Shown here: positions 15,811 to 35,870 of the stretch, piece by piece
Position numbering within the stretch: position 1 is the stretch's first letter
How the letters are laid out: each line of letters opens with the position of its first letter
DNA from: Syntrophaceae bacterium
GTDB taxonomy: Bacteria; Desulfobacterota; Syntrophia; Syntrophales; Smithellaceae
Direction: 5' to 3'
Assembly: GCA_009773315.1 (NCBI GenBank)
Contig: WRPE01000005.1
Span: 23,842-87,841, forward strand
DNA length: 64,000 bases
Notes under the pieces: model-generated
What the model saw: the letters and a program-made list of their open reading frames with translations, nothing else
What the model was told of the DNA's origin: nothing
Databases searched by the model: none
Made by a program: the position numbers and the translations under genes

Positions 15811-17790
15811 TCAACCATTTTTCACATAGGTTATCATCGTCGCCTTGCAGCGGCGCTTGGTCTGATCGACGAAGCCAAGCGTGAATTTTCCTTCCGGTTT
15901 TTGGAAGATATCCAATCCGCGGCCAAGGATGATTTTCCATCCCGTGTCGGCTTCAATCGAGCGGTCGTGTAAGCCTGTTTCAAAACGATAGGTAAGGCTG
16001 ATGCGATCTTGGGCAAGGCTTTCTTTGAGTTCCTCCAGCTTTGCCGAGGCATCTTCTTCCTGTCTTTTGGCATCTGATCCCGTCACGAGTTCAATCGCTA
16101 ATCCTGTCTCTGAAGAACTTAAGCCCTCACAGAAATTAAGAAAATTGTGAATTTGATAGTCATAACGGATAAAGGGGTCAACCAATCTGATAATTCTTGC
16201 CCCTTTCAAGTAGGGGTTGAACAGCCGGACGTATGAAACCCCGCGCTGTCCTTCGTTAATGTTTAATGTGGTCTCAATAGGTTTTCTGTCTGTTGACAAG
16301 CTGTCAGCCGGTTCAGCTACTTTTTCCGGCTCAGGTTTTTCTTCGGGATGAGACATCTGAAAATCATCCGGCTGTTCGCTCTTTATCGTGACCCATTGAT
16401 ATTCTTGATCCAACCTGGCCAATTCATCCCGAATTTGTTGCCGCATCCGAACAGCTGGATTGACGCAATACTCGACAAATTCTTCATCTGTAACCTGCAA
16501 ATCGGGGAACAATAGTTTAAGAAAGCCCTCGGCAATCCGAGCGACAGCCTTGTGATCGCGCATATCATCACAGGAGGGAAGACGCATGCTATGGGAGACA
16601 TAGTCGGCATATTGCAGATCGCTTCGCAACTCATGGAGGACTTCGCTGAAAAAGTCTCCTTTGAATCCCAGGCTTTTTGAAGGCGTATTCTTCGTGATGC
16701 GCGGCATAAACCACCCCTCAAGCAGACCATGCAAGCGATCCACAAAAGCCGATTCCTGAAGGGATGAAGGCAGTTCCTTGAAAATGCCATTTGTTTCATA
16801 GAGGGGCCGTCTATCGGGGCCAATGGTAATATTGCCCAGAATGGCGAAGCCGCATTCGGCTGTACCCATATCGCCGGTGGCCCTGCGATAACGGCCGCTT
16901 TCCAAATACATCTTAAGCGCCGCCATTGCCTCTCCGGCCGCATCCGTGTGGATCTTCTGAACCTCATCAATAACGACCACGTCATATCTGGGTATCAGTC
17001 CGAGCTGTTTGCTCTGACTGTTAAAGAACAAGGTAGGTGCGGACAGTTTACCTCCCGGGATAACAGCGGCATACCGACTAATATTGTCAAAAACAAAGGA
17101 TTTTCCTGTGCCTTTAGGGGCGAGCTCGGCAAGGTTGATCCGCGGCTGAACCAAGGGAATGATACGGCTAAGCAAAAGCATCTTCTGGGGGAGGGTGTGC
17201 GTATCTGGATTAAATTGACAGCTCGATATCAACAAATCGATCCACTCCGGGAGAGTGAAATGTTTTCGACAGTCCCGGAAATATTTCAGATCCACCCCGG
17301 GACTCTGAAACGGTTTAAAATCTACCATCCAGATCTGTCCCTTTTTGACTTCTTCCCCGTCGGGCGGGACATAGCGCAGGGTGCCAAGTCCCCACATGCC
17401 TGTCTTGAGTAGCATCTGATTTTCATCAATGATGCCCTTTTGAACCATAGCGCTATTTGTATCCAGCACAGGAATACTCAATTCATGGGTATTCCTGGCG
17501 AGGTTGACGTTGACCCGAAAGTCGTCAATAATCTTCACTTCTTCCTGTTCCTTCAAGCGATTGAGGAGGATGTTTTTATCTGCCTTCTGCGGCAGATAAG
17601 AGGATACAATCTTGATAATTTCCTCACGTCCGCCTTCTGTCAATACATCTTCTGCGAGGAATTGGCTGATGATCCATTCACCCACATACACAGGGATAGC
17701 TCGTGCCCCGAAACCGGCTTTTGACATCAGTCCCTTATTGATGACCACCTCTCCGTAGTAGTCTCTCGCTTTTGTTTCAAATGATTTCAT
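15811..17790 (-). CDS. brxL: BREX BrxL-family AAA+ ATPase with MIT_C/PLD-like C-terminal domain (no Lon protease domain)
   Basis: IPVYVGEW, NLAELAPKGTGKS, VVIDEVQ, LKMYLESG, SAFVDRLHG, MRDHKAV; C-terminus LVDPFIR...LHDRSI..DTGWKIILGRGLDIFQ. Confidence 0.85.
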   Translation of the reverse strand: MKSFETKARDYYGEVVINKGLMSKAGFGARAIPVYVGEWIISQFLAEDVLTEGGREEIIKIVSSYLPQKADKNILLNRLKEQEEVKIIDDFRVNVNLARNTHELSIPVLDTNSAMVQKGIIDENQMLLKTGMWGLGTLRYVPPDGEEVKKGQIWMVDFKPFQSPGVDLKYFRDCRKHFTLPEWIDLLISSCQFNPDTHTLPQKMLLLSRIIPLVQPRINLAELAPKGTGKSFVFDNISRYAAVIPGGKLSAPTLFFNSQSKQLGLIPRYDVVVIDEVQKIHTDAAGEAMAALKMYLESGRYRRATGDMGTAECGFAILGNITIGPDRRPLYETNGIFKELPSSLQESAFVDRLHGLLEGWFMPRITKNTPSKSLGFKGDFFSEVLHELRSDLQYADYVSHSMRLPSCDDMRDHKAVARIAEGFLKLLFPDLQVTDEEFVEYCVNPAVRMRQQIRDELARLDQEYQWVTIKSEQPDDFQMSHPEEKPEPEKVAEPADSLSTDRKPIETTLNINEGQRGVSYVRLFNPYLKGARIIRLVDPFIRYDYQIHNFLNFCEGLSSSETGLAIELVTGSDAKRQEEDASAKLEELKESLAQDRISLTYRFETGLHDRSIEADTGWKIILGRGLDIFQKPEGKFTLGFVDQTKRRCKATMITYVKNG

Positions 17791-17806
17791 TGCCTTGCCT
17801 TTCTTA

Positions 17807-20197
17807 TTATAGATCCGTCAAACTGAACCCGCCCGTTAGAGCTGATCGGAATTCCGCTGCTGTTTCTATTTTCATAACCCTCTCTTCTCCGGCTATTTCA
17901 TAGGCGCATTGCACTATCAGCGATTCCTGACTAATGGCGGATTTGTTGAAATAGCAATCCAATTGAATGGTCGTGGTTTTCTCTTTTATCAAGACGGGAA
18001 TTACCTGCCCTTTAATCTCCGCGATAGGTTTCACGACCGTCATGCGCAGGATTCGGATATCTTCCGGATTAGGGTTCAACATCTCTATCCTTAAAGGAGT
18101 GATCCGCTGAATGTGAAAAACCGCTTTACCCGATGCAGTATCCACTCTTAAGTCCAAGAAACGTGCTTTCGGCGCATTCCAGGCAGCCTTCACAGCTTTA
18201 AAGAAAGCCGCCGGGACGATCACCTCCTCCGGTGTGGCGCCCCCGTGCGTATATCCCTTCCCCCTCTTACCGGCGCGAACGGTATGGTGGCCTCGTGGAA
18301 TAAAGAAGACATTGTCGCCGATCGTAAAGGGTGGGATAAAACGGTATCCTAAATCCCAAAGATTCGCCGGCACTGCATCGGCAATGCCTTTTTCGATCAC
18401 GGCAAAGCGGCGGCGTTCATCAGGAAATAGTTTATTCAGCGTCTTTGACTCGAATGCCTGAGCTTCACTATCCAAGATGAAACAGGCGCCATGGTCTGTC
18501 AAGACATAGAGACCGAAGGATTCTCTTTGGCCAGGGCAACGGTCCAGGAGCGCGGCGACCGTGTCACTCACCCGCATGAACAATCGATGGAGTTCTCCCT
18601 CATGGGTCTCACCTTTCGCTTCCGGATCGCCATGAAGTATCTCATCGCCGGCAAGTAAATTGAGGTAAAGAACCGTCGGCTCGGTGGGCGCTGAGAAATC
18701 AGCAAGCTTTTTTAGATCCGACAAGTAGATGACTTTCTTGCCATCCCAGTCATTCGCTGCTCGTTCATGGAGGAGCGCGTCATAAGACTTTGGCGGAGAG
18801 TTCCAGGCCCCACTGAACAGAGCCGGTTTCACAAACTCCGTATCCGTTGGCAGGGGCGCAAAGCGATACGCCAGGGCATGGCGATTTAAACCCGTTTTCC
18901 GCAAGGCATCTTCAAATATCGGCCAGAATGTTACCGGAAGCCCATCTGCCAAGATGATCAACGAAAGCGATTCACTGCGGATAGAATCGCGAAAAGAATG
19001 GAGGGTATGAATCGAGCTTATTTCAGCGTTCTGATGAACAGCCGCATAGTCTCGGATATACCAATCCGTAAATAATCGCACGGCCTCCTCCACATCTTCA
19101 TCATAGTGGCTATTTTTCGTCTGCCAATACCGATACGGCAAGTAGGAATCCACTGCCCAGGCTGCCCACGCCGATGGACTATTCAGCGAATCCTTATCCG
19201 GTAGAGCCGGTTTGGGTGGCACCACCAGGTAATCAAGGGTTGTCAACTCGGTAGTTTCTAACCCAGTACATTGTCGGAATTTTTCCTTCACGGTGGCAAT
19301 ATCTTGCGCTACCGGGGCAAACCGGCCGGCTTTCAAAAGGCTTTTTACCAGCTTGAATTCCAAAATCAGTAGTCCAGAGGCAACCTTAACTACTTTTTGA
19401 AAGGCATTGCTGGAATCAACTTCCTGAACGATGTCCTTAAAGAATAATGCTATTTGTATCGCCGCTTCTTCAATGGCTAAAAGCTCCAGGGGAAGATCCT
19501 TCAATAACGCCAGAGGGATGCTCCGTAAAATGTTTGCCTGCTGCAATGATATGACATATTCAAGAAGTTTAGGAGGGTATGCTCCGAGCAGTACATAAAG
19601 GCTCATGTCCCGCCATAGATTTTCCGCCCGACTGATAAGCACGGGTAACAATACCTTTTCCCAATCCTGATCGGCATGCGAAAGCCAGATTTCCCCTTGC
19701 TCAAGCAAACAACGGGAAAGAAGAGGATAACGATCAAATACACTTTTCGCTTCCTCGCGGTAAAGAGCGGGCACTATTTCGGCAATACGGCTTCGATCGA
19801 ATTGATTCCCGCGAAATGAAGGCCCTAAGAGATGGACCAGGAGCGCTTCTGCAAAAGGGCAGAGCTTTTCATTCTTTACATCCAAATCGAGAAGCTTTTG
19901 CGATACAACGTCCTCATCCGTTAACCATTCCGGCAAGGTAACATTCCACGTCTCAGAAAGGATGAGCCGCGCCGTTTTCTCAACACAATCAAAGGGCAAT
20001 TGGATCTGCTCGCAAAAATGCTGCAGCCAGGCAAAGAGATAACGCTTCCGTACCCAGATTTTCAGAGATTTATTCTTGGATACTTGAGCGATAAGGGCGT
20101 GACAGGCTTTCACGTAACCCGCCTCCCCCTCTGCCAGAAAAACGCCCTCAGGCAAGACATGGCTATAGTCGCCAATGTAGCTGATTTCAAATTTCAT
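17807..20197 (-). CDS. pglZ: PglZ alkaline-phosphatase-fold BREX protein
   Basis: LIILADGL, LPTDT, DEILH, LTDHG, YTHGGATPEEVIVP. Confidence 0.85.
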   Translation of the reverse strand: MKFEISYIGDYSHVLPEGVFLAEGEAGYVKACHALIAQVSKNKSLKIWVRKRYLFAWLQHFCEQIQLPFDCVEKTARLILSETWNVTLPEWLTDEDVVSQKLLDLDVKNEKLCPFAEALLVHLLGPSFRGNQFDRSRIAEIVPALYREEAKSVFDRYPLLSRCLLEQGEIWLSHADQDWEKVLLPVLISRAENLWRDMSLYVLLGAYPPKLLEYVISLQQANILRSIPLALLKDLPLELLAIEEAAIQIALFFKDIVQEVDSSNAFQKVVKVASGLLILEFKLVKSLLKAGRFAPVAQDIATVKEKFRQCTGLETTELTTLDYLVVPPKPALPDKDSLNSPSAWAAWAVDSYLPYRYWQTKNSHYDEDVEEAVRLFTDWYIRDYAAVHQNAEISSIHTLHSFRDSIRSESLSLIILADGLPVTFWPIFEDALRKTGLNRHALAYRFAPLPTDTEFVKPALFSGAWNSPPKSYDALLHERAANDWDGKKVIYLSDLKKLADFSAPTEPTVLYLNLLAGDEILHGDPEAKGETHEGELHRLFMRVSDTVAALLDRCPGQRESFGLYVLTDHGACFILDSEAQAFESKTLNKLFPDERRRFAVIEKGIADAVPANLWDLGYRFIPPFTIGDNVFFIPRGHHTVRAGKRGKGYTHGGATPEEVIVPAAFFKAVKAAWNAPKARFLDLRVDTASGKAVFHIQRITPLRIEMLNPNPEDIRILRMTVVKPIAEIKGQVIPVLIKEKTTTIQLDCYFNKSAISQESLIVQCAYEIAGEERVMKIETAAEFRSALTGGFSLTDL

Positions 20198-24249: not shown

Positions 24250-24383
24250 AATGTGGCGTTATTAATGACCGTCTTATCCGCGGCGCAATTGGCATTAAAT
24301 AACACGATATAATATCGAGTACTTAAAAAATTGCATTACGCCGAACTTACGCCGTAATTGCGCCAATCCCATGCAAAAAACTA

Positions 24384-25187
24384 TTACGGCGATGTCTTGT
24401 CTATTCTTGATACAATCTCCCGCACAACATAATCGAACGCTGCATCAAGGTCATAACTTGCGCCGTCCGGCAGCAGCGATTCGATATCGCTCGCAAAGCC
24501 CGGATGCTTCATTTTCTCCCGGAGGTTCTTTTCATAGGTCTTGCCATCGACGGTATTGCCTTCAAAATCCATGTAGCGCCGGAAGATTTCCACAACACGT
24601 TCAGCGCTTGCTTTCCCTTCCGTAAGACCCAACCACAAATCTATGAGGTCGCGCCCTTTTCTTCGCTGGTACAAGGCGCGCGTTTTCGTCCCGAGCAACT
24701 CCTCAATCGTGTATGTCGTGATCTCGCAGTTTCCCTGAAACCAGCGGGAATCGACTGAGAAAGGAATCTTCCGGAATCCCTCCACGGAAAAATGCTCCCG
24801 CGTATTGATTTCCACTTTCAAGCGCATGGAAACCACCGGAGATCCCTCAGATTCCATTCTATAAATCAAAGTCACGGTCCCTTCCGCCTGATTGCGACGG
24901 GGTTTCCCCAGGAATTCGCCCAGTATGCCTTGAATCTTGTCAATGACCGGTCCGATACCGCCAGGTTCGATCTGAACAAGGTCGATATCCTCCGAGTAAC
25001 GGCGCGGCGGATTGAAGTGCAGCTTGTTCAAGGCCGTCCCTCCCCGAAAGGCCAACTTTCCGGCCAGGAATGGCTCCTGAAAGATGGCCACCAGCGCCCT
25101 GCTCATGATCAAGTCCTGTTCCACCTGGGCATGTGAGATCCAGGGCGCCAAACTGCGCCAGCCAACAATGTGCGCCGACGGAATCAT
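24384..25187 (-). CDS. abiEii: AbiEii-family nucleotidyltransferase toxin (type IV TA)
   Basis: QVEQDLIMSRAL, FRGGTALNK, RYSEDIDL, KVEINTREH, TKTRALYQRRKGRDL. Start overlaps the abiEi stop (ATGA). Confidence 0.9.
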   Translation of the reverse strand: MIPSAHIVGWRSLAPWISHAQVEQDLIMSRALVAIFQEPFLAGKLAFRGGTALNKLHFNPPRRYSEDIDLVQIEPGGIGPVIDKIQGILGEFLGKPRRNQAEGTVTLIYRMESEGSPVVSMRLKVEINTREHFSVEGFRKIPFSVDSRWFQGNCEITTYTIEELLGTKTRALYQRRKGRDLIDLWLGLTEGKASAERVVEIFRRYMDFEGNTVDGKTYEKNLREKMKHPGFASDIESLLPDGASYDLDAAFDYVVREIVSRIDKTSP

Positions 25188-25999
25188 ATATCCGCCTCCA
25201 CTTCCGTATTGATCAGCAGTTGCCAGCGCGGATCTTTTTCTGCGCCCCGAATCGGCAACGAAGGTTCCAGCTTGGCCGGCAGTGGGTTGCGTTCTCTGAT
25301 CCATTCCCTCAGACCCTCTACCAATTCAGAATGACCGGCTCTTTCCAGCAACCATCCCAGCCGCTGTCCATACGCTAGATTGCCGTCGACTTTGACGGCA
25401 TTTACCAGCTTTAACCGATCCATACTTTCCCCAAGTTCCTGCAGGACGGTCAATACACGGTCCAGGCCGCCGATCGCTCTGGCGTAGCGGATCAGATCGA
25501 TTGCAGTTCCTTCTGGAGTTGAAACAGGAATAAAACCGGTTTGAACCTTGGTGGAGACAACAGGGGTCGCCTTAAAGTTGGTCTTGGAAAAAAAGCGGAC
25601 GGACAGGCTCCTGACTTGAAGCCTGCGCAGGGGACCGGTCGTGACAACTTGAAATTGCTGCGGCTGTTGATGGGCGGCACCGTGTAAAGCTGCGGCGCTT
25701 AGCAAACCGACGTAATAGGGCCGTCCCATATGGGTCATCAAATCAGAAATGAACCAGTCGGCGGGCAAAACGCGGGTAGAACTGAATTCAAGAGGGATTA
25801 TAATGTAGAAACCGCTGAGAACTCGAAGTATTCTTTCTTTCTTCTGCAATCTGGAAACTGCCATCTTGAAGGCAATGTCACTCATTTGCAGGTTCTTGAC
25901 AGCCTCCTCGCGGGAGAAGAAATAGAGCCCCTGGGCCTGACGGGCATCGACCCACTCGGCCAACTTGGCAGGAACCGGAGCATCCATCTTTTCGGCCAA
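25184..25999 (-). CDS. abiEi: AbiEi-family antitoxin/transcriptional regulator
   Basis: N-terminal wHTH (GFYIIIPLEF), YYVGLLSAAALHGAAHQQPQ, STPEGTAIDL, QRLGWLLE. Confidence 0.9.
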   Translation of the reverse strand: MAEKMDAPVPAKLAEWVDARQAQGLYFFSREEAVKNLQMSDIAFKMAVSRLQKKERILRVLSGFYIIIPLEFSSTRVLPADWFISDLMTHMGRPYYVGLLSAAALHGAAHQQPQQFQVVTTGPLRRLQVRSLSVRFFSKTNFKATPVVSTKVQTGFIPVSTPEGTAIDLIRYARAIGGLDRVLTVLQELGESMDRLKLVNAVKVDGNLAYGQRLGWLLERAGHSELVEGLREWIRERNPLPAKLEPSLPIRGAEKDPRWQLLINTEVEADI

Positions 26000-26013
26000 G
26001 GCAAACCTCCATT

Positions 26014-26070
26014 AAAGTTAATTTTCGCAGATAGTAGCGGAAGTCGCTACTTTTTGCAAACGATAACTTT
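26014..26070. promoter_or_regulatory. 26-bp-arm imperfect inverted repeat upstream of abiEi (probable autoregulatory operator)
   Basis: aaagttaattttcgcagatagtagcg-gaagt-cgctactttttgcaaacgataacttt; 20 of 26 arm positions complementary. Confidence 0.7.
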
Positions 26071-26117
26071 GCCATTGAGGCGATTCGGGGATCATTGTTT
26101 GCAGCGGGTATTTACTC

Positions 26118-26621
26118 TTATGTCAGCTTCTTGAACAGTATCCTTAATGCTTTCCCTTCTCGAATGTATTCCGTAAATGTTTTCTCCCAATGCCTGGGAT
26201 AGAGGTTTTTCTTATGATAACCAGTGGTCCGGATAGTCTTTTCAATGCTGACTGCCCTTGCTTCAAGATTCATGAAAGCAAGCAGCTTAATGGCGGCCTG
26301 ATCGCAGGTGCAGAAGATAAGCTCCTCATCATTCTGAATCAGACAGGCAATGGCTTCCAACTCCCCGGGATCAATACCCAGCCGGGCTTCTTTGGCTTCG
26401 TCTCGTACCGTTTGCAAATGCTCCACAGCAACATTTTCAATAATGGTGACGCGATCGCTGATAGCGATTTTGGTCCTCGCGCCGTCTCTTTTAAAGTATG
26501 ATGCCTCAGAAAGGACGGTCTTGGTTACATGGATTTCATAACCCTTGATGATCCTATCGAACAAGTCGAGGGTATGAAGGTCGATGATGACATCGGCGTC
26601 AAGCAGCAGCAATTTTTTCAT
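26118..26621 (-). CDS. PIN-domain protein
   Basis: LLLDADVIIDL, VLSEA, IDPGELEAIA, FCTCDQAA acidic tetrad. Confidence 0.8.
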   Translation of the reverse strand: MKKLLLLDADVIIDLHTLDLFDRIIKGYEIHVTKTVLSEASYFKRDGARTKIAISDRVTIIENVAVEHLQTVRDEAKEARLGIDPGELEAIACLIQNDEELIFCTCDQAAIKLLAFMNLEARAVSIEKTIRTTGYHKKNLYPRHWEKTFTEYIREGKALRILFKKLT

Positions 26622-27750
26622 AGTTTTTTACCGCATACCCGGCAGCAGACAGATAATCATCGATTGCGGACCGATCGATCTCCATATACTCGGCAAACAA
26701 CCCTCGTGAAATTTTCCCCTCCATCAGGCAACGGCAAGCAAGAGAAACGTACCGTTGCGGGAACTTCTCCGGCTGATGCTCTTCATACAGCCCCCGGCGC
26801 AGGCCTCGATCCATGTTCCGAAATTCGGCATCACCGAGAATTTTTTCGACCTGGCCTTTCTTAAGTTTTTTGAGATTGACAAGCCTCCACAGAACGGCTT
26901 CCGAAGAAACGCCGAACTCTTTCGCCAGTTCGATGATGTCAACCAACTTCAGTTCCTGATTCACCGCGATTTCCTTTAGAGCAGCAAGCAGATGTTCCTT
27001 CGGCAGGAGCAAACTCGCCGCAAAGCTATCGGCAAATTGCTCCGGCTTCGTTTTACGTGTCCCGTCTCCGATTTCCTCATGCGAGAATATTTTCCACGTG
27101 ACGATGTGGAAGAGCTCATGGGCGAGATCGAAATTCCGCCGCCATGGCGCATCATGGAGATTGATGAGGATGCCCACGCCAAGGGCGCTGTCCACGATGC
27201 TGGCGCCGGACAAACCTTCTCCCAGGTCCAGATGAATAACTTTGAAACGAAGCGTGTTCTCCAGGATGTTCAGAAGATTGCAGGCTGGGCGTGATCCCAG
27301 GTCAAAGCGCTTATGAATGTCGGCGCCAAGCTTGTCGGCCGCCGAAAATCCGTTTTCAATGAAGTCATCACTGTCCAGACTGGTGAGGATTTCTTTCCAG
27401 CGCCGCTTCAAGCCGAGGAGATTTTCCAGGCGGCTGTAATTTTCGAGAAAGTTGAGAAATTGACGCTGCTCCTTTTGAACATCGCTGCCTGCAGTTCGCC
27501 GCCAGAGGGGAACTGGGTCCGATGGGATATTGGCTTCGAAGAAATAATCCAGGGGCCTGCTGTAAAGACGGGCCATCAAGATGAGCTCGCCGGCGCTGAC
27601 GTTCCGAGTTCCCTTTTCGACGGCGGAGAGGATCTGGTAATGCTTGAAACCGAGTTTCCGCGTTGCTTCCACCAGAGAAAAACCAGCATTTTCGCGCGCC
27701 TGAGCAAGCCTTTCGTGAAGATTTTTACCCTCGGTATTTGAAGAGTTCAT
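26599..27750 (-). CDS. XRE-HTH fused ImmA/IrrE-family metallopeptidase
   Basis: N-terminal HTH (ARENAGFS...VEKGTRNV), RRNFDLAHELFH zincin motif, EQFADSFAASLLLP, FGVSSEAVLWRL. Confidence 0.9.
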   Translation of the reverse strand: MNSSNTEGKNLHERLAQARENAGFSLVEATRKLGFKHYQILSAVEKGTRNVSAGELILMARLYSRPLDYFFEANIPSDPVPLWRRTAGSDVQKEQRQFLNFLENYSRLENLLGLKRRWKEILTSLDSDDFIENGFSAADKLGADIHKRFDLGSRPACNLLNILENTLRFKVIHLDLGEGLSGASIVDSALGVGILINLHDAPWRRNFDLAHELFHIVTWKIFSHEEIGDGTRKTKPEQFADSFAASLLLPKEHLLAALKEIAVNQELKLVDIIELAKEFGVSSEAVLWRLVNLKKLKKGQVEKILGDAEFRNMDRGLRRGLYEEHQPEKFPQRYVSLACRCLMEGKISRGLFAEYMEIDRSAIDDYLSAAGYAVKNYEKIAAA

Positions 27751-27762
27751 AACCGCCTCCCG

Positions 27763-27831
27763 ATAAGATTATCTTATGTTTAGTTTTAAATTATTTTCAT
27801 ATTGCATAAGATATTCTCATGGAGATGTCAA
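27763..27831 (-). promoter_or_regulatory. promoter with two palindromic operators upstream of XRE-ImmA
   Basis: ATAAGA-TTA-TCTTAT (27763-27777) and cATAAGA-TAT-TCTCATg (27805-27821); minus-strand TTGACA at 27826-27831. Confidence 0.6.
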
Positions 27832-28085
27832 TATCAAATATCACTCTGGGCTTTTGTCGCGGTTGTTTGTCAATTGGATTTCACTCTCGTCCTGATACGA
27901 ATTGTTTCCATGATCATGCCCTACATAGAAAATAACGACTGTCTCCCCATAAATCTTTTCGGTCTTTAGATGAACGATTGGATGAAAAAGAGGCATCACA
28001 AATCCTTTGTGTTGTAACTCATGCAGAGGAGTAATCTTATGCATAAGGCTGCTATGAAGTAATGAAGCTAATTACCCTTCTCATT

Positions 28086-30224
28086 TCATGGTGTTTTGGC
28101 TGGCCCACCTAAGATTTGTAGAATCACGAACAAGATACCGAAAGCCCCAACACCCCAGAGTGATTTTCTCCAAGGCTTTACAACAAGCCCTACAATACCG
28201 AATGAAACCATAAAGCTTAAACATCCCTGTAAACCATAGCTGTTGGGATGGCGCAATAGCCAATCCCATCGCCAGGCACTATTAATCACGACTAAAAAGA
28301 TCAGACTCGTAAGTAATGCAATAATGATACTGGAAAATTGCCGAATGCGAAGTGCTTTTAGCTCTGCTGTTCGGGCTTTTTCCTGTGCATTATCCTTGGC
28401 GATAGTGAGTTCTTCTGCTTCCTTCTTTTTTGCATTCAATAATTCATATGCTTTGGCGATTTCTATAGAAGTCTCCTGTTTCTGTTGTTCCAGATCTTTT
28501 TCAACCCGCCCTTTATCAGTTGTTAACAAATCTATTTGTTTTGCCAAAGCTGCGCGTTCTTCAATTAGTGTTTGATTCTCTGCCGAGATGGCTGAATCCA
28601 CCAGTTCTTGAAACTGTTCATCATTATCAACCGCACGTAATCGGTCGATAAGTAAATCATTGGAAAGCAATTTAGCAGCCGTTTCTTCTGGGAAATCCTT
28701 GTAGCATGCAAGAAGATTAAGCATTTTTGAGCAAGCTTTAACAGCACCGCTTCCAATAGTTCTGAATTCCGGTATTGCGAATGTTTCAGCGAATGACTTG
28801 TCAAAATCCTGACTTGCAGGGATAAATGGACGGAGTATTTGCCACAAGACATTAGGTAAAACAACTGATCCATATGATTTGGATCTTCGGCTTTCATTGC
28901 TATCGAAACGATATAACGTATAGTCACATGTTAGAAGCAGGGCACCAGCATTAATGGTCGATTTGGTGCTTTTTCTTATTGACCGGACGCAATCAAGGAC
29001 GGCCACATCATGGATTATAGATCCATCAGGTTTTTTCTTATAAATGCTTTCCAAAAACTTGATATAATTCTCCTGAAGTGTGCCTCGCTCAATTAGCCTA
29101 TCCTCTAAAGGTTTATATTCATCGATCCCTTTTCCTTTCAGTAGGAGATCAATATGCTGGTACGGCCGCAAGAAAGAATCGACATCAATACCAGTTTCAA
29201 CATTTTTCTGATGGTACTTTAGTGCAATACCTGAGATGTAGGGAGATTTCATGGCTGCTCTGCTTAGTGATTGTGGCCAGTGGTTTTTTTTCAATTCACC
29301 AGCATAATAGTTAATCGTATCAATCGCTTCCTCTAGAGTTCTTTCGTGGTATTTCAAGTAAAATGGAAGCTTATTGTCAGAAATTACTTTAAGTAAATTA
29401 TGGGAAACTTCCACTTGCGAGTTGACATGAATATCAAGGATACCAAAAAGGAAGTTGGTGTCACAGAATATTACGAGTGGACTCAAATTCTCACGATAAT
29501 TATTGGCAACATCTGGTGAAACCATCAAAGAGAAGTAGTTGAAAGCACCATCCGCACACTCCGCAATATATTGTGTCCGATCCGGTTTATTACCTGCTGC
29601 AGATAGAAACTCCACAATTGCCGCCTTCGCAGTAGGCCAGTGCTTGCTATCAAAATGCGACTTCACGGCATCTTTAAGCATAAGCGATAGGCTTTTAGAG
29701 TATTCCTCCGGGAGTTCTACTGAAGAATCGAGAAAAGCTACGGCCTGAATCCCATGGCGCAGAAATGCTTTTGCCAGGTACGCCTGTAAGGCATCCCACG
29801 CCGCATCACTAGGAAAATCAACATACTTTTTGGAGATCTCCATCATCCATTCACCACGAATCCGTTTTTGTAAACATGACGCCTGTTCAATTTGGGCTTG
29901 AACGTTCATTCGCGATTCATCTGTGAGAACATAATTGGTTCCCAAAGGCTTGTGTATTCGACCATCTTGAATCAACCGATCCAGCGCCTCCTGGATTTGA
30001 TGATTCGGAGCATCAATCCCAAACATCGTTGAGAGGACACCTGCTATATCATTTGCACTGCACAGGCTATCTCCTTCAAATGCAAGGATAGTATGGACAA
30101 TTAATTCTCTGAGGCTCTCTTCAGGTGAACGAATATTTGAAATGGCCGCAAAACTACACATCTGTTGGAAATTCGTACTTGCTACCGAGATGCGAATAGT
30201 TTCTACATTAGGTTGCGTCATCAA
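28086..30224 (-). CDS. hypothetical protein: wHTH-like N-terminus, PIN-like domain, coiled coil, three C-terminal TM helices
   Basis: VIFCDTNFLF...RTLEEA...HDVAVL...LLTCDYTL; heptad-rich stretch; three hydrophobic segments at the C-terminus; visibly AT-rich DNA. Confidence 0.7.
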   Translation of the reverse strand: MMTQPNVETIRISVASTNFQQMCSFAAISNIRSPEESLRELIVHTILAFEGDSLCSANDIAGVLSTMFGIDAPNHQIQEALDRLIQDGRIHKPLGTNYVLTDESRMNVQAQIEQASCLQKRIRGEWMMEISKKYVDFPSDAAWDALQAYLAKAFLRHGIQAVAFLDSSVELPEEYSKSLSLMLKDAVKSHFDSKHWPTAKAAIVEFLSAAGNKPDRTQYIAECADGAFNYFSLMVSPDVANNYRENLSPLVIFCDTNFLFGILDIHVNSQVEVSHNLLKVISDNKLPFYLKYHERTLEEAIDTINYYAGELKKNHWPQSLSRAAMKSPYISGIALKYHQKNVETGIDVDSFLRPYQHIDLLLKGKGIDEYKPLEDRLIERGTLQENYIKFLESIYKKKPDGSIIHDVAVLDCVRSIRKSTKSTINAGALLLTCDYTLYRFDSNESRRSKSYGSVVLPNVLWQILRPFIPASQDFDKSFAETFAIPEFRTIGSGAVKACSKMLNLLACYKDFPEETAAKLLSNDLLIDRLRAVDNDEQFQELVDSAISAENQTLIEERAALAKQIDLLTTDKGRVEKDLEQQKQETSIEIAKAYELLNAKKKEAEELTIAKDNAQEKARTAELKALRIRQFSSIIIALLTSLIFLVVINSAWRWDWLLRHPNSYGLQGCLSFMVSFGIVGLVVKPWRKSLWGVGAFGILFVILQILGGPAKTP

Positions 30225-30248
30225 GCGATCCCTCCTTATTCGAAATGT

Positions 30249-33200
30249 TTACAATAATAATGTGGCTATGCGGTCGTATTCCTCCAGGCATTTGCGTTTG
30301 GACATGAATTCGCCGAAGGCTTGTTCTTCTTTGCGTTTCAGGACGGGGAAGGTGTCGAGAATGTAGGCAAATTCGTCACGAGACAGACCATAGAGATGGG
30401 CGACGCAGGCGTCAATTTCGGCCCGTAACTGGGCACGGTCTCCCGTGTCCCTCCGGTCGGGAGTGCGCTCATGGACACCGCAGGCGGTTGACCATTCCGG
30501 GGTCAGATTGGCGGCTTCCTCGTAAAGGCGACGACGGGTTTCCTGTTCGTGCTGGGGGCCATAGGTAAATTTTGCTTTTCCATCTGATGGGTACCAGAAG
30601 GCTGCATCCTTCCATCTATCTATTTGAATTTCCTTCCACAATTCTGAAAAGCGCTCATCTATACAGGTGAGGCGAGCAGTGCGTGCGGTAATTTCTGGAT
30701 GGACGGGGCTGTTTTGCAGTTGTGGAAGCGGTAAATCCATATAAGTCGTGCTCAAATGACTGGTCGTTTTGATCCGCGTGAGAAAATCGAATACGAAAGA
30801 GTTAACGACACCGCCCCAAAAGCAGATCTGTGACAAAGGATAGACGTTTTGAATGATTATATTGTGGCCAGACAACCTCGGACAGTAATGTTCAAACGTC
30901 CTAATAGTATATGAATGAGGGGATGGTTTTGGCAATATAGCGGCAATAAAAGTACGTTCATTCGTATCGGCAGCAACCTCTCTGAAGGCCAATCTGTATC
31001 GCTCAGGTGCCAGATCAATCTGGCCGTCTTTCGTTATTTTGAGAATGTCAATCTTTGACTTCTTTTCAAGCTCCGCAACTCGATTAACGGAATCTTTTGA
31101 ATAAAAAAGCCGATAGGCTGTTGGTTTTAAATAATGACTGGGCGCAGCAAAGTCACAATCAAAATGCCAGATCATTTTCCCTTCAAACAGTTGTGGTCCA
31201 CCTGTTTCACATGGCGAAAGACTTTCGGTGTGAGAAGTCAAGTCAATTTCCCGTGCCACTGTTAAATTCAAATCTGGACCGATAAGGGGGAACGTTTTGT
31301 AGATATTGAGTGAAATTTTTAAGTCCTGCTGGCTTTTGAATTCCATGACGCTCAGGGTTTCGGGCGAGAATTTGCGGACGTGATCTAACTGCATCTCCAG
31401 CGCCCCGGCGTCGATGACGGGCAGGCGTTCCGGGTCGTGTTCCATGAAGGCGCAGCGGAAGGCCTCTGTTTTACCTCCCTTTTCCGTGCAGAAAAGGATG
31501 AACTTGAAGCGCCCGTCCACGGCAGTGAAAACCGTCGGCCAGCGGTTCTCAAAACCATAGAGGCAACAGATGCGGCTCTCGTTGAAAAAAAGCTCTCGCA
31601 ACGGCTGACATCCCTGGTCTGTATAGAGTCCACTGGGCGTTACGATCCCCAGGCAGCCGCCCGGCCTGAGAAGAACGAAGAACCGCTCCAGAAAGAGCTT
31701 ATAGGTGTTGATGTCCCCTTTGCCCAGGGCGCGGTAGGCGGCCGGCTGCCGAACATATTCGCTTTGCTGTTCAAAGTCCAGGCAACAGGTCTCCCACTTC
31801 CTGCGGATGGGCGGGTGTTCCGCCATGAGGTGTTCGGCTACCCGGTTGGCCTCCTGTTTCGTGTAACTGCGGAAGGCACTATCATAGGCGGAGAAGAACT
31901 CCTGAGAATTCGGTTTAAGGATATCCCAGGGCGGATTGCCGACGTCGGCGTCGAAACCACCGTTTTCCTCGTTGAAGACCTCTGGAAACTCCAGCGGCCA
32001 ATGGAAAAAGTGATGCCTACCCGCAAGGACTTTCGCCTTATCATCCAGTTCCATTTCGGCGATCGATGCCGGGGCTTCACCCTGTGCCAAACGCAGGAAG
32101 AGTCCATGATAATCATCTGGGTTTACTGCGCTGTCCATGAGATAGGCTGTGAAGAGATCCGCCAAGGGCAACAACGGGTTGATTCTTTCGCGCCGGGTCT
32201 CTTCATGGATCTCCTTCTGGCGATCCGTATCGTCCTCTGCAATCTGTGTGATGGACATCATGTCTCGGGCGGCTTTTTGAAAGGCCTCCGTCAGTGTTTC
32301 AGGAAAAGGTAAGTCCTGCAGTTTCTTATCTTTCTGAAGCTTCTTTTTGGCATCCTTGCTACGTTCCGGGATTCTCTGCAATTGGGCAAGGTGTCGGATA
32401 CCGATAAGGCTGTTGCCGCATCGCAGATGATGATCGAGAAAAGTCAATTTGTGTTCCCGGGCGAAGCAATTGAGCCACAGAGAAAGCTTGGCCAGGTGGA
32501 CGGCAAGGGGATTCAAATCCACACCGTAGAGGCAATGTCGGGTTATGAGCCGCCGCCAGTGATTCGGGGCACAGGTCGTCGGCGAGGACATTCCCTCAAC
32601 ATCAGGGATTTCAGCAAGAAGGCTGACAATCAGATCGGTAATTTGGTCTGCGGCGTTGACAAGAAAATGGCCGCTTCCCATACCGGGATCGCAGAGTCTG
32701 AAGATAAGGACGACTTCCTTGACGAAGCGTTCCACCAGGGCAATTGCCGACTGGGCTGCCCCACGCCGGACAGCCACATCATGCCCTTCTTGGGTTTCCC
32801 GGATAAAGAGATCGAAGCGCTCCCGGTAGTCCTGGGCGAAACGATCCTGCAGTGGCTGAATGACCGTTTTTCCGTTGAGAAATCGGACCAGACTCTCCGG
32901 CGTGTAGTAAGATCCAGTCTGCTTGCGCTCCAAAGCGGACTCACCAAAATAAACATCGCCTTTTTTAATGAGACTGTCGCTCGTTTGGCGGGCAGTTTCC
33001 GAAGCCAGCAGGTTTTCTATGCCTTTCTTTGTCCGGCGACGAATACGATCCGCATCGGCTAAAGTGACATTAAATTCGAGAATATTCTCGTACATTTCAC
33101 CTAAGTGACGCACCTCCAGATTGCGGTAGGGGATGGGGTATTCCTTATCCGGATCTGAATCATAAGGATCTACATAGGCCATCAGATAGAGGGCGCGAGC

Positions 33201-34274
33201 AAGAAAGTCATTTCTCAGTTGCTGTTTCCCCAGAAATTTCTCTTGCTCATCATCAAACAGACCGCCATTATATCCCATGATTCCATACTCCGGATCGCCG
33301 TCGTTGACTGCATGGATCAGCCCTTTGAGGTGTTTCCAGAGATCATATCCTTCATGGTCTGTCCGGATTCCCCACCGGAAACGATGGGCCTCACGGCAGA
33401 GGGCCTGAATGGAATGCTTGGCATAAATCTCCTGCTTTTCCACCTGGGACGGCAGAAGGCTGCGGGACTCGGCGTAGAAGAGGAAAAGGCAACGATAGAG
33501 CAACTTGACGGCGCTTGCGAATATTTCCCCTCTCTCCTCCTCAGTGTATTCTTCACCTTTGCGGGGAGTATCCGCGATGAAACCATTACAAATATACTGG
33601 AGGGCTTCGTCAATCTGCTGGAGAAGCGGGGATTTCACTTTATCCTCGAGGAGCTTCTCAGATGCCGCCATGTCCTTGTCCAGAGGGCAAGTATAAACGC
33701 CGAGGTTGCGGGCGTCTTCCTTCCGTCCATCTTCTTTGTCCCCCGCTTCCGGCGTGAAGGAGTCCATATGGAAGAATGTCTCAAACAGGGCGTACTCTCC
33801 TTCATCATTCTGCGCCAAAGCCTCGGCAAGATTGAGTTCCACATATTCCTCAAATGGCTTGCCGGTGCGGTTTGTATAGAGGCGCCACCTTTCCCCATTC
33901 GTCAGGAGCCCCCAAGTCAGCTTGCGATGCCGCAGTTGCATGATCAATCTCGCCGGCCAGAAACGCCCGACCGAAGTATCATCCATATCCGCCCCCGGTT
34001 CTATGAGATAGAGAACTGCGACGCAGTTGGAATAATTGTAGTCCTCATACAGGGGATAAACGCCGGGATTATCTGTACTGACCGGAGGGACAAAGGAAAG
34101 ATAACTGAGAGCCTGTTTGATATAGGTATTCCAGAGAGACTTTAGATTGGTCCTGTCGCAATTCTTCCAGGTATGAGCAAGGGTCGCCATGCGGCCCTGA
34201 CCGGCGTCGTCCAGTTTTGCTTCGGAACGGATTTTATCGATAAAAAGTGTGCTGAATAATCCGTGGTTTCTCAT
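30249..34274 (-). CDS. pglX: Eco57I-like/PglX-type N6-adenine DNA methyltransferase
   Basis: GYNGGLF, LGEMYE, RKQTGSYYTP, CDPGMGSGHFL, LYGVDLN, FHWPLEFPEVF, GNPPW, WGLLTNGERWRLY. Start moved to the ATG at 34274 after GAGGAG. Confidence 0.85.
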   Translation of the reverse strand: MRNHGLFSTLFIDKIRSEAKLDDAGQGRMATLAHTWKNCDRTNLKSLWNTYIKQALSYLSFVPPVSTDNPGVYPLYEDYNYSNCVAVLYLIEPGADMDDTSVGRFWPARLIMQLRHRKLTWGLLTNGERWRLYTNRTGKPFEEYVELNLAEALAQNDEGEYALFETFFHMDSFTPEAGDKEDGRKEDARNLGVYTCPLDKDMAASEKLLEDKVKSPLLQQIDEALQYICNGFIADTPRKGEEYTEEERGEIFASAVKLLYRCLFLFYAESRSLLPSQVEKQEIYAKHSIQALCREAHRFRWGIRTDHEGYDLWKHLKGLIHAVNDGDPEYGIMGYNGGLFDDEQEKFLGKQQLRNDFLARALYLMAYVDPYDSDPDKEYPIPYRNLEVRHLGEMYENILEFNVTLADADRIRRRTKKGIENLLASETARQTSDSLIKKGDVYFGESALERKQTGSYYTPESLVRFLNGKTVIQPLQDRFAQDYRERFDLFIRETQEGHDVAVRRGAAQSAIALVERFVKEVVLIFRLCDPGMGSGHFLVNAADQITDLIVSLLAEIPDVEGMSSPTTCAPNHWRRLITRHCLYGVDLNPLAVHLAKLSLWLNCFAREHKLTFLDHHLRCGNSLIGIRHLAQLQRIPERSKDAKKKLQKDKKLQDLPFPETLTEAFQKAARDMMSITQIAEDDTDRQKEIHEETRRERINPLLPLADLFTAYLMDSAVNPDDYHGLFLRLAQGEAPASIAEMELDDKAKVLAGRHHFFHWPLEFPEVFNEENGGFDADVGNPPWDILKPNSQEFFSAYDSAFRSYTKQEANRVAEHLMAEHPPIRRKWETCCLDFEQQSEYVRQPAAYRALGKGDINTYKLFLERFFVLLRPGGCLGIVTPSGLYTDQGCQPLRELFFNESRICCLYGFENRWPTVFTAVDGRFKFILFCTEKGGKTEAFRCAFMEHDPERLPVIDAGALEMQLDHVRKFSPETLSVMEFKSQQDLKISLNIYKTFPLIGPDLNLTVAREIDLTSHTESLSPCETGGPQLFEGKMIWHFDCDFAAPSHYLKPTAYRLFYSKDSVNRVAELEKKSKIDILKITKDGQIDLAPERYRLAFREVAADTNERTFIAAILPKPSPHSYTIRTFEHYCPRLSGHNIIIQNVYPLSQICFWGGVVNSFVFDFLTRIKTTSHLSTTYMDLPLPQLQNSPVHPEITARTARLTCIDERFSELWKEIQIDRWKDAAFWYPSDGKAKFTYGPQHEQETRRRLYEEAANLTPEWSTACGVHERTPDRRDTGDRAQLRAEIDACVAHLYGLSRDEFAYILDTFPVLKRKEEQAFGEFMSKRKCLEEYDRIATLLL

Positions 34275-34281
34275 AATCTCC

Positions 34282-34752
34282 TCAAGTGAGTGCGAGGGTG
34301 TCCCGCTGGTCAATGACAAACTGGTATTGCTTGAATCGGTCAAACTTCTGCGCTGCAAGGGATCGGTCAAACTGCATGGCGAAAAGCAGGGCGGGCTTTT
34401 TGTCCCACGTCTCGATTTGCTGGGCAAACTGCTCCAGGACACCAGCTTGACCCGTCCAGGTTGCCTTCAAAAATTCCATGCCGGATATGATGAGTATTTT
34501 TTTATTATCGCCGCGCTCTGCAAGAAAACGAAAAAGGTCGTTGATAGAAAAGGTTCCAACATTTTCAGAAAGCGTCTCATCTTCCGCAAAAACATCTAAA
34601 ACATGCAGATGGGCGGCGACGGCTTGCCGCGCGAGTTCGGCGGCCCAGGATTCTTGTGATAGATAATCGTGAGTGAAAACGATGCAGGCTCTGCCACGAG
34701 GGCGCTTGGGAAGAGATTTTGTCAGTTCAACAATGTCCACGACTTTATCCAA
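34282..34752 (-). CDS. BrxF/BrxB-like small inactive P-loop protein
   Basis: 156 aa with alpha/beta P-loop-like topology (RACIVFT...LHVLDVF...ILIISGMEFL) but no GKT/S; position between DUF4007 and the methyltransferase. Confidence 0.55.
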   Translation of the reverse strand: MDKVVDIVELTKSLPKRPRGRACIVFTHDYLSQESWAAELARQAVAAHLHVLDVFAEDETLSENVGTFSINDLFRFLAERGDNKKILIISGMEFLKATWTGQAGVLEQFAQQIETWDKKPALLFAMQFDRSLAAQKFDRFKQYQFVIDQRDTLALT

Positions 34753-35607
34753 TTAGCCGACCTCCTTTTGCCTGGATTCAGGGCTGGCGCCTTCGTAATA
34801 CCACTTTAGAAAGGTAAAAGCGGATAAGCCGTCCAAGAGACGAACCTGGTCAAGATGGTGTGTACTTTCATATCGCACCCATCCGTTTTGATGCAGCGGC
34901 TCTACAGCTTGGCGAAAGGTGGATTCATCAAAGCCGAATAAAAGGGAAGGCGACCCCTCTGCCTCTGCGATTTCCCGAACCTGCAGAAGGCTCTCCCCGC
35001 GCGTGGCGGCATAATCATATATCATGGCACTGAGGATGAGAGGCTCTACGCGCAGATGGCGCGTCCGGTATAACCGTCCATCGCTATGCTGGTGAAGGAT
35101 TTCCAGCTTCTTAAGGTTTCTATTCAGGTAGGCATCTATGACGAAACGAACCTCCTGCTGTAGGTGCTTGCCGATGGTTCTATCGGTATATTGACCGGAA
35201 AGGGTAGTTCTTAAATTAGCCAACCAGCCGCTTTCGGTTATAGCCTGCTCTGCGGGAAGGATCGAGTTAAAGATTTCGTACCAGACGAGATTCTTGGAGC
35301 TACCTGCGCCCCGGTAATGGCACCATTGGAGGGTGCCGATCCTTTCCAGAAAGATATCGTGTGCGGCAATCAGTTCACCTGTCTGTGTCAGGGTTTGCAT
35401 CCCTGGCTTAATCAGTCCCAGCGCACAACCGATACTCACGACACTTTCTATCTGGCGGTTAGACAATCCTGTGCTTTCTTGGATTGCCTCACGATAGATC
35501 CGCTTCATTGATGGGTTGGACAACAAAAAGTGCAAAACGCGGGACAACTGATCGAACGCGAAGAGATAACCATTGCTGAGCTGGAGTTTGCGGATTGGTT
35601 GAACCAT
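34753..35607 (-). CDS. DUF4007-family (SspB/BrxA-like winged helix) protein
   Basis: TGLSNRQIES...LGLI...LTQTGELI..HDIFLERIGTLQWCHY...VWYEIFN and GSPSLLFG...LDQV pattern. Confidence 0.75.
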   Translation of the reverse strand: MVQPIRKLQLSNGYLFAFDQLSRVLHFLLSNPSMKRIYREAIQESTGLSNRQIESVVSIGCALGLIKPGMQTLTQTGELIAAHDIFLERIGTLQWCHYRGAGSSKNLVWYEIFNSILPAEQAITESGWLANLRTTLSGQYTDRTIGKHLQQEVRFVIDAYLNRNLKKLEILHQHSDGRLYRTRHLRVEPLILSAMIYDYAATRGESLLQVREIAEAEGSPSLLFGFDESTFRQAVEPLHQNGWVRYESTHHLDQVRLLDGLSAFTFLKWYYEGASPESRQKEVG

Positions 35608-35870
35608 TGAATGCCTTTTGTCGTAGAGAATGGTTTCTGCCGATAACGAAATTATTGCTTGTTTTTTCCTTGGCTGTCCATGTCCTCCCATAAATCTCAT
35701 TTATTATGCGTTGTTAGATTGCATATTTATCACAATACGTCAATCATAGACTTAACAAATTATTAGTTTGATAAATTGAAAGAAAATAGTGCCTCACAAC
35801 TCTGCACCTTTCAAACCGAAGTCAATGAATGTAGCCGATGAGCGAAAGTGTTGAGTTGTATTTGTACCCT

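Follow-up and report, generated by a model that had tools for sequence, protein, structure and literature searches.

Gene content of a BREX-like cluster

We analysed a stretch of 64,000 nucleotides (hereafter the window) from contig WRPE01000005.1 of a Syntrophaceae bacterium (assembly GCA_009773315.1), and focused on a gene cluster that resembles the bacteriophage exclusion (BREX) systems. According to the list of open reading frames (ORFs), positions 15811-35700 of the minus strand are filled by 11 consecutive ORFs. In the order of transcription, these encode a DUF4007 protein, a protein of 156 residues, a DNA methyltransferase (methylase), 6 kb of inserted genes (24250-30248), an ATPase of the SspC/BrxC kind, a divergent PglZ and, last, a BrxL whose tail is of the HKD type (MIT_C) (Table 1). 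A preliminary description made from the sequence had listed these genes, and all of them were found again, without exception on the minus strand. It had further reported that several functions were missing, and a Pfam scan of the cluster proteins indeed revealed no 3'-phosphoadenosine-5'-phosphosulfate (PAPS) reductase, cysteine desulfurase, helicase or kinase domain. For PAPS reductase (PF01507), the absence extends to the whole genome, which comprises 86 contigs and is 100% complete by markers; the same search was positive in 14 of 14 control genomes. In promoter and terminator scans of the stretch, sites were no more frequent than in shuffled sequence, and the 19.9-kb region had no match in E. 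coli genomes. The one annotated record at hand, plasmid pIAD-21, labels all six genes outside the inserts as 'hypothetical protein'.

Table 1. Positions of the cluster genes, the inserted cargo and the flanking genes in the window
Feature	Position	Strand	Remarks and basis
DUF4007 protein, in the slot of a BrxA/SspB-like DNA binder	34753..35700	-	longest ORF 315 aa; likely ATG 35607 = 284 aa
Small protein, 156 aa, in BrxB/BrxF position	34282..34752	-	putative P-loop-fold relative, Walker A and B lost
N6-adenine-type DNA methyltransferase, 1341 aa from corrected start	30249..34274	-	Pfam Eco57I 2.6e-21
Cargo 1: 712-aa protein, no family	28086..30224	-	low-GC stretch
Cargo 2: HTH + M78 peptidase regulator/antitoxin, RmrA-like (26599-27750), and 167-aa partner ORF (26118-26621)	26118..27750	-	Pfam, PADLOC
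Cargo 3: AbiEi antitoxin (25184-25999) and AbiEii nucleotidyltransferase toxin (24384-25304)	24384..25999	-	Pfam, PADLOC
AAA+ ATPase of SspC/type-4 BrxC kind, 1351 aa	20194..24249	-	PADLOC, hhalign
Divergent PglZ, putative alkaline-phosphatase fold, 796 aa	17807..20197	-	weak profile matches
BrxL: N-terminal DNA-binding region, AAA+ ATPase, HKD-type (MIT_C/PLD-like) domain replacing Lon-like domain	15811..17790	-	Pfam, TIGR02688
Flanking pair in island: Panacea/SocA-domain protein (14952-15755) and overlapping 272-aa ORF (14267-15085)	14267..15755	-	Pfam SocA_Panacea 1.2e-6
Flanking gene in island: minimal nucleotidyltransferase (MNT-like)	35914..36237	-	Pfam NTP_transf_2 1.8e-12; PADLOC PDC-S09 5.1e-24

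The methylase ORF spans 30249-34442, with a GTG at 34442. We corrected its start to the ATG at 34274 (M57 of the ORF), which is the first invariant column among 13 homologues and is preceded by GAGGAG directly after the stop codon of the small gene. Two motifs were invariant in 13 sequences, DPAMGSGHF (584-594 of the ORF) and, behind it, GNPPW (835-839 of the ORF). Having the AdoMet motif I placed before an NPPW/Y motif IV, the enzyme shows the layout of gamma-class N6-adenine methyltransferases, and the NPPW motif is assigned to adenine methylation. A homologue from a related locus (L004) matched Pfam N6_Mtase. Among the PADLOC models, the window methylase scored best with type IIG (1.7e-89) and the DISARM methylase DrmMI (2.9e-75), followed at a distance by PglX (1.4e-8), and it reached 48.3 bits on the NCBIfam BREX-1 PglX model, which has a cut-off of 500. 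Compared to solved structures, the methylase profile retrieved a type I M subunit alone (0.0063). Conservation is lowest in residues 1001-1240, where mean pairwise identity falls to 0.18-0.43, as fits a target-recognition region. The final 100 residues are strongly conserved (0.61-0.83), which hints at contact with a partner protein.

The DUF4007 protein, the product of the only such gene in the whole genome, matched Pfam DUF4007 (6.8e-15) and, in PADLOC, the BrxP C-terminus (3.5e-10) and SspB (2.3e-9). Because homologues of 279-292 residues align from about residue 29-38 of the window protein, translation probably starts at ATG 35607, the end coordinate given in the preliminary description. 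Searching solved structures with the DUF4007 profile returned nothing meaningful and did not recover SspB. A Campylobacter paper that names DUF4007 (PMC8713573) was, in its accessible part, irrelevant to the system. The 156-residue protein had no family match in Pfam, PADLOC or NCBIfam, and its gene is kept beside DUF4007 in every related locus extending that far. In an alignment of its homologues, both Walker A (GxxxxGK[ST]) and Walker B (hhhhD(E/N)) are retained in Ktedonobacteria and in a clade with the methylase gene in first place, and both are lost in the window's clade and in a clade with the gene order of type 1 BREX. The protein had initially been called BrxF/B-like. The backing for the first half of this label is indirect only, from the alignment with P-loop homologues and from weak NCBIfam BrxF matches of 3 of the 15 aligned proteins, none of the three being from the window's clade. 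The second half was dropped, as hhalign between the small-protein profile and a type-1 BrxB gave a probability of only 0.14%. Against solved structures, the same profile produced marginal AAA matches alone (E 0.11-0.6).

For the ATPase, PADLOC ranked SspC (5.9e-34) above BrxC (1.3e-12), and a Walker A motif GSYGTGKSHL as well as a DEFG motif were conserved in 29 sequences. Profile comparison by hhalign linked it to an SspC-like protein (97.1%, 877 columns) and, over the N-terminal 362 columns, to the BrxC of a type-4 reference locus, L067 (96.9%). In this reference, BrxP combines PAPS reductase, ferredoxin and DUF4007 domains, PglZ reaches 777 bits on the NCBIfam BREX-4 model, and BrxL has 486 residues. 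The window PglZ was recognized by the PADLOC PglZ model (5.9e-7), and its profile matched the solved PglZ structure 9zn5 at 2e-4. Type 4 is its best though weak subtype match, with 28.4 bits (5.9e-7) on the BREX-4 model compared to a cut-off of 140; the remaining types score lower, including BREX-1 type A (20.4 bits, cut-off 270) and type B (18.5 bits, cut-off 400). The hhalign match to the L067 PglZ (94.5%, 133 columns) covers the catalytic core only. Within the protein, D418, T453, D518, H522, D568-H569 and H651 are invariant, and a sister clade described below has invariant D, T, D, H, DH and H counterparts. As the Pfam PglZ model at default threshold misses the window protein, surveys relying on it would miss this lineage. 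In the protein collection, a precomputed table assigns PF08665 to the whole PglZ family, yet Pfam PglZ finds nothing in the genome (E ≤ 1e-3).

BrxL matched Pfam BrxL_N, BrxL_ATPase and MIT_C (2.1e-43). It passes TIGR02688 (437 bits, cut-off 329) and fails the Lon-related TIGR02653 (253 bits, cut-off 628). Residues 10-461, with a Walker A motif APKGTGKS, match the solved type-1 BrxL 8emc at 2e-54, and residues 509-653 match human MITD1 at 6e-26. The tail carries the sequence H608-D-R-x4-D. An HxRx4D motif was present in 55 of 56 long BrxL proteins, always with Arg and never with Lys, and an HRD variant is likewise described for type-1 BrxL-HKD in the accessible part of a 2026 BREX survey (PMC12839542). 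Long HKD-form BrxL proteins are encoded in 36 of the 37 loci with a complete ORF. The exception, L031, belongs to the window's clade and looks damaged, having a 494-residue BrxL that lacks the HKD tail.

Conserved linkage and distribution of the six genes

In a collection of 5.8 billion proteins, the window PglZ has 54 close cluster representatives (35-100% identity), after which matches drop to E 1e-9. Almost all of the 54 are metagenomic, and all are named 'hypothetical'. Searching one genome per species with the PglZ profile located full-length relatives (32-94% identity) at about 47 distinct loci. Judged by their record titles, these belong to Syntrophales and other Desulfobacterota, Planctomycetota, Acidobacteria, Latescibacterota, Verrucomicrobiota, Gemmatimonadota, Ignavibacteria, Hydrogenedentota, Omnitrophota, Lentisphaerota, Kiritimatiellae, Sumerlaeota, Aminobacteriaceae and Arenicellales. 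Two isolates, Desulfosarcina variabilis and Desulfoferrobacter suflitae, represent the window's clade in culture.

Using the window proteins as tblastn queries, we found ATPase, PglZ and BrxL contiguous in every related locus whose contig permits, and the methylase upstream of the ATPase in 21 of the 22 non-duplicate loci with at least 5.3 kb of upstream sequence. Loci L034 and L035, an identical contig of 27797 bases filed under two metagenome-assembled genomes with Desulfopila and Cytophagaceae labels, were counted once. The exceptional locus, L043, looks decayed: its ATPase lacks the first ~214 residues, has no methylase in the 6 kb upstream and lies beside an opposite-strand RecD2-like helicase. 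In the 10 loci of the window's clade that reach that far, the genes before the methylase are DUF4007 and the small gene. A search for the six-gene set free of inserts, as proposed in the preliminary description, uncovered compact operons in 6 of 23 loci, with methylase-ATPase gaps of 29-263 bp. The concern raised there, that the methyltransferase trio might be unlinked to ATPase, PglZ and BrxL elsewhere, is answered by the linkage in 21 of 22 loci. Dozens of unrelated genomes share the arrangement, more than chance would produce.

The lineage is larger than the window's clade. A profile search of 1.84 billion representatives returned 700 PglZ relatives at E ≤ 1e-3, 395 at 1e-10 (representatives at 50% clustering) and 164 at 1e-30. 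They include a second tier of ~785-residue proteins scoring 150-385 bits, and the loci of this sister clade come mostly from Chloroflexota/Anaerolineae, but also from Bacillota, Thermotogota, Armatimonadota, Bacteroidota and one Abditibacteriota plasmid. Cultured carriers are Pelolinea submarina, Leptolinea tardivitalis, Levilinea saccharolytica, Clostridium homopropionicum and Pontibacillus salicampi. Two further gene orders occur here, methylase-DUF4007-small-ATPase-PglZ-BrxL in 15 loci and DUF4007-small-ATPase-methylase-PglZ-BrxL, which is the type-1 order, in 10 loci. None of 34 sister-clade PglZ proteins reached an NCBIfam BREX PglZ cut-off. In the three sister loci scanned, BrxL alone passes a curated model, and the methylases score 81-87 bits against BREX-1 PglX (cut-off 500); Pfam Eco57I was found in both of the two sister methylases scanned for it. 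In a FastTree phylogeny of 92 PglZ sequences, the window's clade forms a group of 40 rows (support 100), and the other two orders together form a group of 49 rows (support 99), within which the type-1-like order is nested. Because of long-branch warnings and rooting on one type-4 sequence, we used this tree for groupings only.

A cargo slot between methylase and ATPase

Additional genes between the methylase stop codon and the ATPase start are a common feature of the related loci, amounting to 0.56-4 kb in 17 of 23 loci and to 6 kb in the window. The contents vary from locus to locus. They comprise AbiE pairs, AAA_21 + DUF4276 pairs, YhcG/DUF1016 nucleases, GmrSD, a KAP NTPase, Schlafen-AlbA_2/HATPase_c_4 proteins, a cytosine methylase with an HhH-GPD protein, a RiboL-PSP HEPN protein, a ParE pair, an IS200-like gene, DUF2513, Hypoth_Ymh and TumE. 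We take the combination of AAA_21 and DUF4276 to be the PARIS domain pair. In the methylase-first clade, cargo follows the methylase too. In a genuine type-1 operon with BrxL-HKD, on plasmid pTHIMO01 of Thioflavicoccus mobilis (L172), ~7.8 kb separate brxC from pglZ; their annotation names a short 'DNA methyltransferase', an ATP-binding protein, DUF2290, a hypothetical protein and a UPF0175/DUF3368 pair. The methylase region of this type-1 operon thus seems to harbour cargo too.

Three cassettes occupy the slot in the window, and their borders showed no flanking direct or inverted repeats pointing to site-specific insertion or a transposon. The 712-residue protein lies in a stretch of low GC content (0.413 at 28001-30000). 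In Pfam, PADLOC and NCBIfam it had no family match save one of 15.9 bits that is TrlF-like; its nearest Atlas clusters, from several phyla, are all 'hypothetical', and no related locus contained it according to tblastn. In a soil metagenome run (X7), there is a 2.8-kb contig ~96% identical to its gene; no contig of this run covers ATPase, PglZ and BrxL, and contigs of run X4 likewise leave parts of the stretch uncovered, which is no proof of absence in either run. The second cassette encodes a protein with Pfam Peptidase_M78 and HTH_3 domains, matched by PADLOC RmrA at 1.4e-19. Just upstream of its gene, at 27758-27825, lies a 21-nt inverted repeat (81% complementary, arms 26 nt apart), which looks like an operator for autoregulation. 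The third is an AbiE pair, with AbiEi matched at 2.7e-34 in Pfam (AbiEi_1) and 3.4e-89 in PADLOC, and AbiEii at 1.6e-36 and 2.4e-106, respectively. The same pair, at 82-83% identity, occupies the same slot in locus L007.

Metagenomic contigs illustrate how the slot varies between closely similar cores. A 10-kb contig of run X8 is ~99% identical to the window over BrxL, PglZ and ATPase, with 73 differences in 7.7 kb. The match ends at 24263, 14 nt upstream of the ATPase start, and is followed by 2.2 kb of unlike sequence. The methylase in X8 is ~92% identical in its N-terminal two thirds, and its recognition region cannot be aligned with that of the window. In runs X4 and X8, loose contig ends lie at 30256-30267, immediately beyond the stop codon of the methylase (30249). 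The evidence from X4, X7 and X8 consists of assembled contigs, which establish that such forms exist and do not give their frequency. From these sequences, we infer that cargo and specificity region alike are swapped by recombination between the conserved genes that flank them.

The whole cluster resides in a genomic island. PglZ was detected in 2 of 41 relatives, the window's own genome included. Two housekeeping genes that frame the island, an acyl-CoA-synthetase-like gene (11690-13825) and an AsmA-like gene (36720-39668), are 22.9 kb apart in the window; in 4 of 4 same-genus genomes examined, 0.5-2.9 kb separate the two, and the interval holds no BREX genes. The system is therefore mobile and sporadic, like defence islands. 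In the two closest relatives, with synthetase-like genes 97% and 95% identical to that of the window, the contigs (G017:C11 and G011:C140) end within ~250 bases after this gene, at the island start. Directly after BrxL, the window carries the Panacea gene pair, and L007 has the same pair (275-1763) in this position at 79-82% identity, its PglZ being only 56% identical. The Panacea/SocA gene and the 272-residue ORF are likely to be a PanA-type toxin-antitoxin pair that travels with the system. At the other edge of the island (35914-36274), a 106-residue ORF overlaps the minimal nucleotidyltransferase gene in another frame.

Relation to described systems and proposed function

Of the six proteins, BrxL alone passes an NCBIfam cut-off, and the other five fit no curated subtype model, contrary to the alternative kept in view by the preliminary description, that all six might fall within an existing one. 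The pairing that defines the BREX superfamily, PglZ together with a BrxC/PglY-type ATPase in one cluster, is present, the matches being weak. BLASTP ranked the sister clade first for both ATPase and PglZ, followed by Ktedonobacteria and then by type 4/SspC. In agreement with the type-4/Ssp-like scaffold proposed at the outset, PADLOC, NCBIfam, hhalign and BLASTP place ATPase, PglZ and DUF4007 closest to type 4/Ssp, while the BrxL-HKD fusion is common with type 1. With BREX type 4 (brxP-brxC-pglZ-brxL), the cluster shares the DUF4007 domain, the SspC-like ATPase, a TIGR02688-type BrxL and the order of the last three genes. Unlike type 4, it has no BrxP, that is, no modifier with a PAPS-reductase domain; its DUF4007 stands alone, and it adds the 1341-residue adenine-methylase-type enzyme and a small P-loop-derived protein. 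Its BrxL has an HKD tail, which is missing from the L067 protein, the one canonical type-4 BrxL that we examined. According to the accessible part of PMC12839542, type-4 BrxL has no C-terminal extensions, BrxL-HKD variants are confined to type 1, and there is no methylase in type 4. The same source gives PAPS reductase in 406 of 457 type-4 taxa and 51 without, so some methylase-carrying loci may be hidden there. Compared to BREX type 3 (BrxHII helicase, PglXI, BrxF, no BrxL), the cluster lacks a helicase domain and has BrxL. The phosphorothioation system SspABCD resembles it in the SspB-like DUF4007 protein and the SspC-like ATPase; SspA and SspD are missing from the cluster, to which the desulfurase search was confined, and PglZ, BrxL and the methylase are present instead.

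Two other contexts contain a similar set of genes. In the Ktedonobacteria loci L053, L054 and L078 (Ktedonobacter racemifer, Ktedonobacter sp. and Dictyobacter vulcani), a five-gene core consists of DUF4007, a small P-loop protein with intact Walker A, a 1322-residue ATPase, a 780-residue PglZ and a 475-residue BrxL, without a methylase or a fused PAPS reductase. In all three loci it adjoins SspB, SspC-like and PAPS-reductase genes, in L054 also a cysteine desulfurase gene; the L078 core is broken up. Judging from this neighbourhood, the Ktedonobacteria core may act as a restriction module of BREX-like type for which Ssp phosphorothioation is the mark to be read, and its location beside PAPS-reductase genes implies that the core occurs with either kind of modifier. 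In Fischerella thermalis, a cluster of brxL, pglZ, sspB and 'a methyltransferase' beside dndBCDE has been mentioned (10.1101/2024.06.03.597175). As far as that mention goes, the set is the same as in the window, read as a phosphorothioate context and not singled out as methylation-based. Apart from this passing mention, literature searches and the accessible part of the 2026 survey yielded no account of a DUF4007-type BREX with a methylase. Within the same bounds, no published subtype matches the cluster, although the preliminary description had supposed that it might correspond to a recently proposed one.

That the cluster is a very divergent type 1 BREX, with six genes in the same roles (A, B, C, X, Z, L) and no need for a new subtype, appears unlikely to us, even though the parallels with type 1 (brxA-brxB-brxC-pglX-pglZ-brxL) are considerable. 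Both have six genes with matching roles and an adenine methylase as modifier, BREX-1 PglX is the best NCBIfam match of the methylases, and the exact type-1 gene order is found in the 10 sister loci, compared to DUF4007-small-methylase-ATPase-PglZ-BrxL in the window's clade. Moreover, BrxA and SspB have a common fold, according to the accessible part of PMC9240713, and BrxL-HKD is shared: type-1 HKD tails are up to 47% identical to that of the window, and among 24 plasmid records matching the tail, both of the two that we inspected are canonical type-1 operons with DUF1819 and DUF1788/BrxB. In the window, however, DUF4007 and an unrelated small protein replace BrxA (DUF1819) and BrxB (DUF1788), two domains that were absent among 17 proteins scanned with Pfam. 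The scores on the PglX and the two BREX-1 PglZ models lie far below their cut-offs, and neither BrxC nor PglZ of two genuine type-1 systems gave a BLASTP match to the window ATPase and PglZ. BrxL fails the Lon-related model and passes TIGR02688, as do the BrxL of L067 and the Ktedonobacteria BrxL that we scanned.

Two systems lying side by side, a type IIL/IIG restriction-modification enzyme with two accessory genes and a separate ATPase-PglZ-BrxL module, would account for the type IIG models being the best matches of the methylase and for the unrelated cargo that parts the halves in the window. Type IIL/IIG enzymes (MmeI, Eco57I) and DrmMI indeed resemble the methylase in domain and in the combination of an N-terminal region with a C-terminal recognition region, and a language model (Atlas) likened its N-terminal 480 residues to MmeI_N/MmeI_hel/HSDR_N, which we treat as a lead only. 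Such a juxtaposition is nevertheless highly improbable given the linkage in 21 of 22 loci, the compact operons across many phyla and, in the 10 sister loci, a methylase inserted between ATPase and PglZ. The enzyme is always encoded with five BREX-like partners, and among 13 homologues the N-terminal 200 residues contain no invariant acidic-x-Lys nuclease signature, the invariant charged residues being D78, R84, K109, D134, R187 and E198. DISARM as a whole differs in that its helicase and DUF1998 genes are missing from the window cluster. We give hardly any credence to a type 4 BREX that uses phosphorothioation supplied elsewhere in the genome and carries the methylase as an unrelated passenger. 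DUF4007, the SspC-like ATPase and the TIGR02688-type BrxL do make up the type-4 set, and the Ktedonobacteria, the nearest outgroup found, have the methylase-free core beside phosphorothioation genes in 3 of 3 loci. But the 100%-complete genome has no PAPS-reductase domain, its single DUF4007 gene is the one in the cluster, and the methylase is as conserved in the cluster as the other members.

Taken together, we consider it likely that the six genes constitute one functional unit, a member of the BREX superfamily that is based on methylation and lies outside all six described subtypes, with three unrelated defence cassettes inserted into it. Several observations weigh against this assignment. 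The identities of PglZ and the BrxC-like ATPase depend on weak profile matches; hmmscan assigned no Pfam family to either protein (PglZ model at 1e-3), and the ATPase profile matched no solved structure. Because type IIG and DrmMI score far above PglX, the methylase could act in a self-contained manner, and its N-terminal region may be a nuclease-like domain. The small protein bears no likeness to type-1 BrxB in the hhalign comparison, the operon is split by six kilobases of cargo, and the PglZ groupings come from a FastTree phylogeny with long-branch warnings and a single outgroup sequence. A more far-reaching proposal, to which we lean only slightly, is that the cluster represents a seventh, methylation-based subtype, the sister of the phosphorothioate-based type 4 on a shared DUF4007-SspC-PglZ-BrxL chassis, found in at least 12 phyla and in three gene orders. 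In this proposal, the methylase-ATPase junction would be a dedicated slot at which near-identical cores trade cassettes and specificity regions, probably through recombination between the conserved genes on either side. The term 'hybrid', used in the preliminary description, is a fair description of the composition. It is less apt as history, since the large lineage of which the window's clade is a part has three gene orders, including that of type 1, and the cluster has BrxL-HKD in common with type 1; the module swap may have run in either direction.

Based on motifs, conserved linkage and analogy, we infer a role for each subunit in the methylation of self DNA and the exclusion of phages. 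The MmeI/Eco57I-like enzyme would methylate adenine within a motif set by its variable recognition region and thereby mark host DNA as self. The DUF4007 protein, a predicted triple winged-helix DNA binder of the SspB/BrxA kind, would scan DNA together with the SspC-like ATPase of the ORC/Cdc6 type. The small protein, with a putative P-loop fold and without ATP-binding motifs, is probably an assembly subunit. DNA lacking the mark would be acted on by PglZ, which has a predicted metal-dependent phosphodiesterase/nuclease fold with intact metal ligands; the type-1 PglZ is described as a metal-dependent nuclease in the accessible part of PMC12205998. Unmarked DNA would also be acted on by BrxL, a putative ring ATPase loading on DNA, equipped here with an HKD-type nuclease domain. 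The cargo at the methylase-ATPase junction, namely AbiE pair, RmrA-like module and 712-residue protein, would provide independent back-up modules.

BREX systems are among the commonest phage-defence systems, and their mechanism is still unsettled. As the NCBIfam and PADLOC version 2 models match the present lineage only weakly, a large group probably goes uncalled. With cultured carriers in both clades, methylome and genetic tests are possible, and the cargo slot offers a ready place to seek new defence genes, such as that of the 712-residue protein. Because a type-4/Ssp-like sensing and restriction core is kept while a methylase would mark the DNA, mark-dependent and mark-independent partners should become directly comparable. 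If our reading is true, the self-marking module of these systems, whether sulphur or methyl, would be exchangeable while the restriction core stays.

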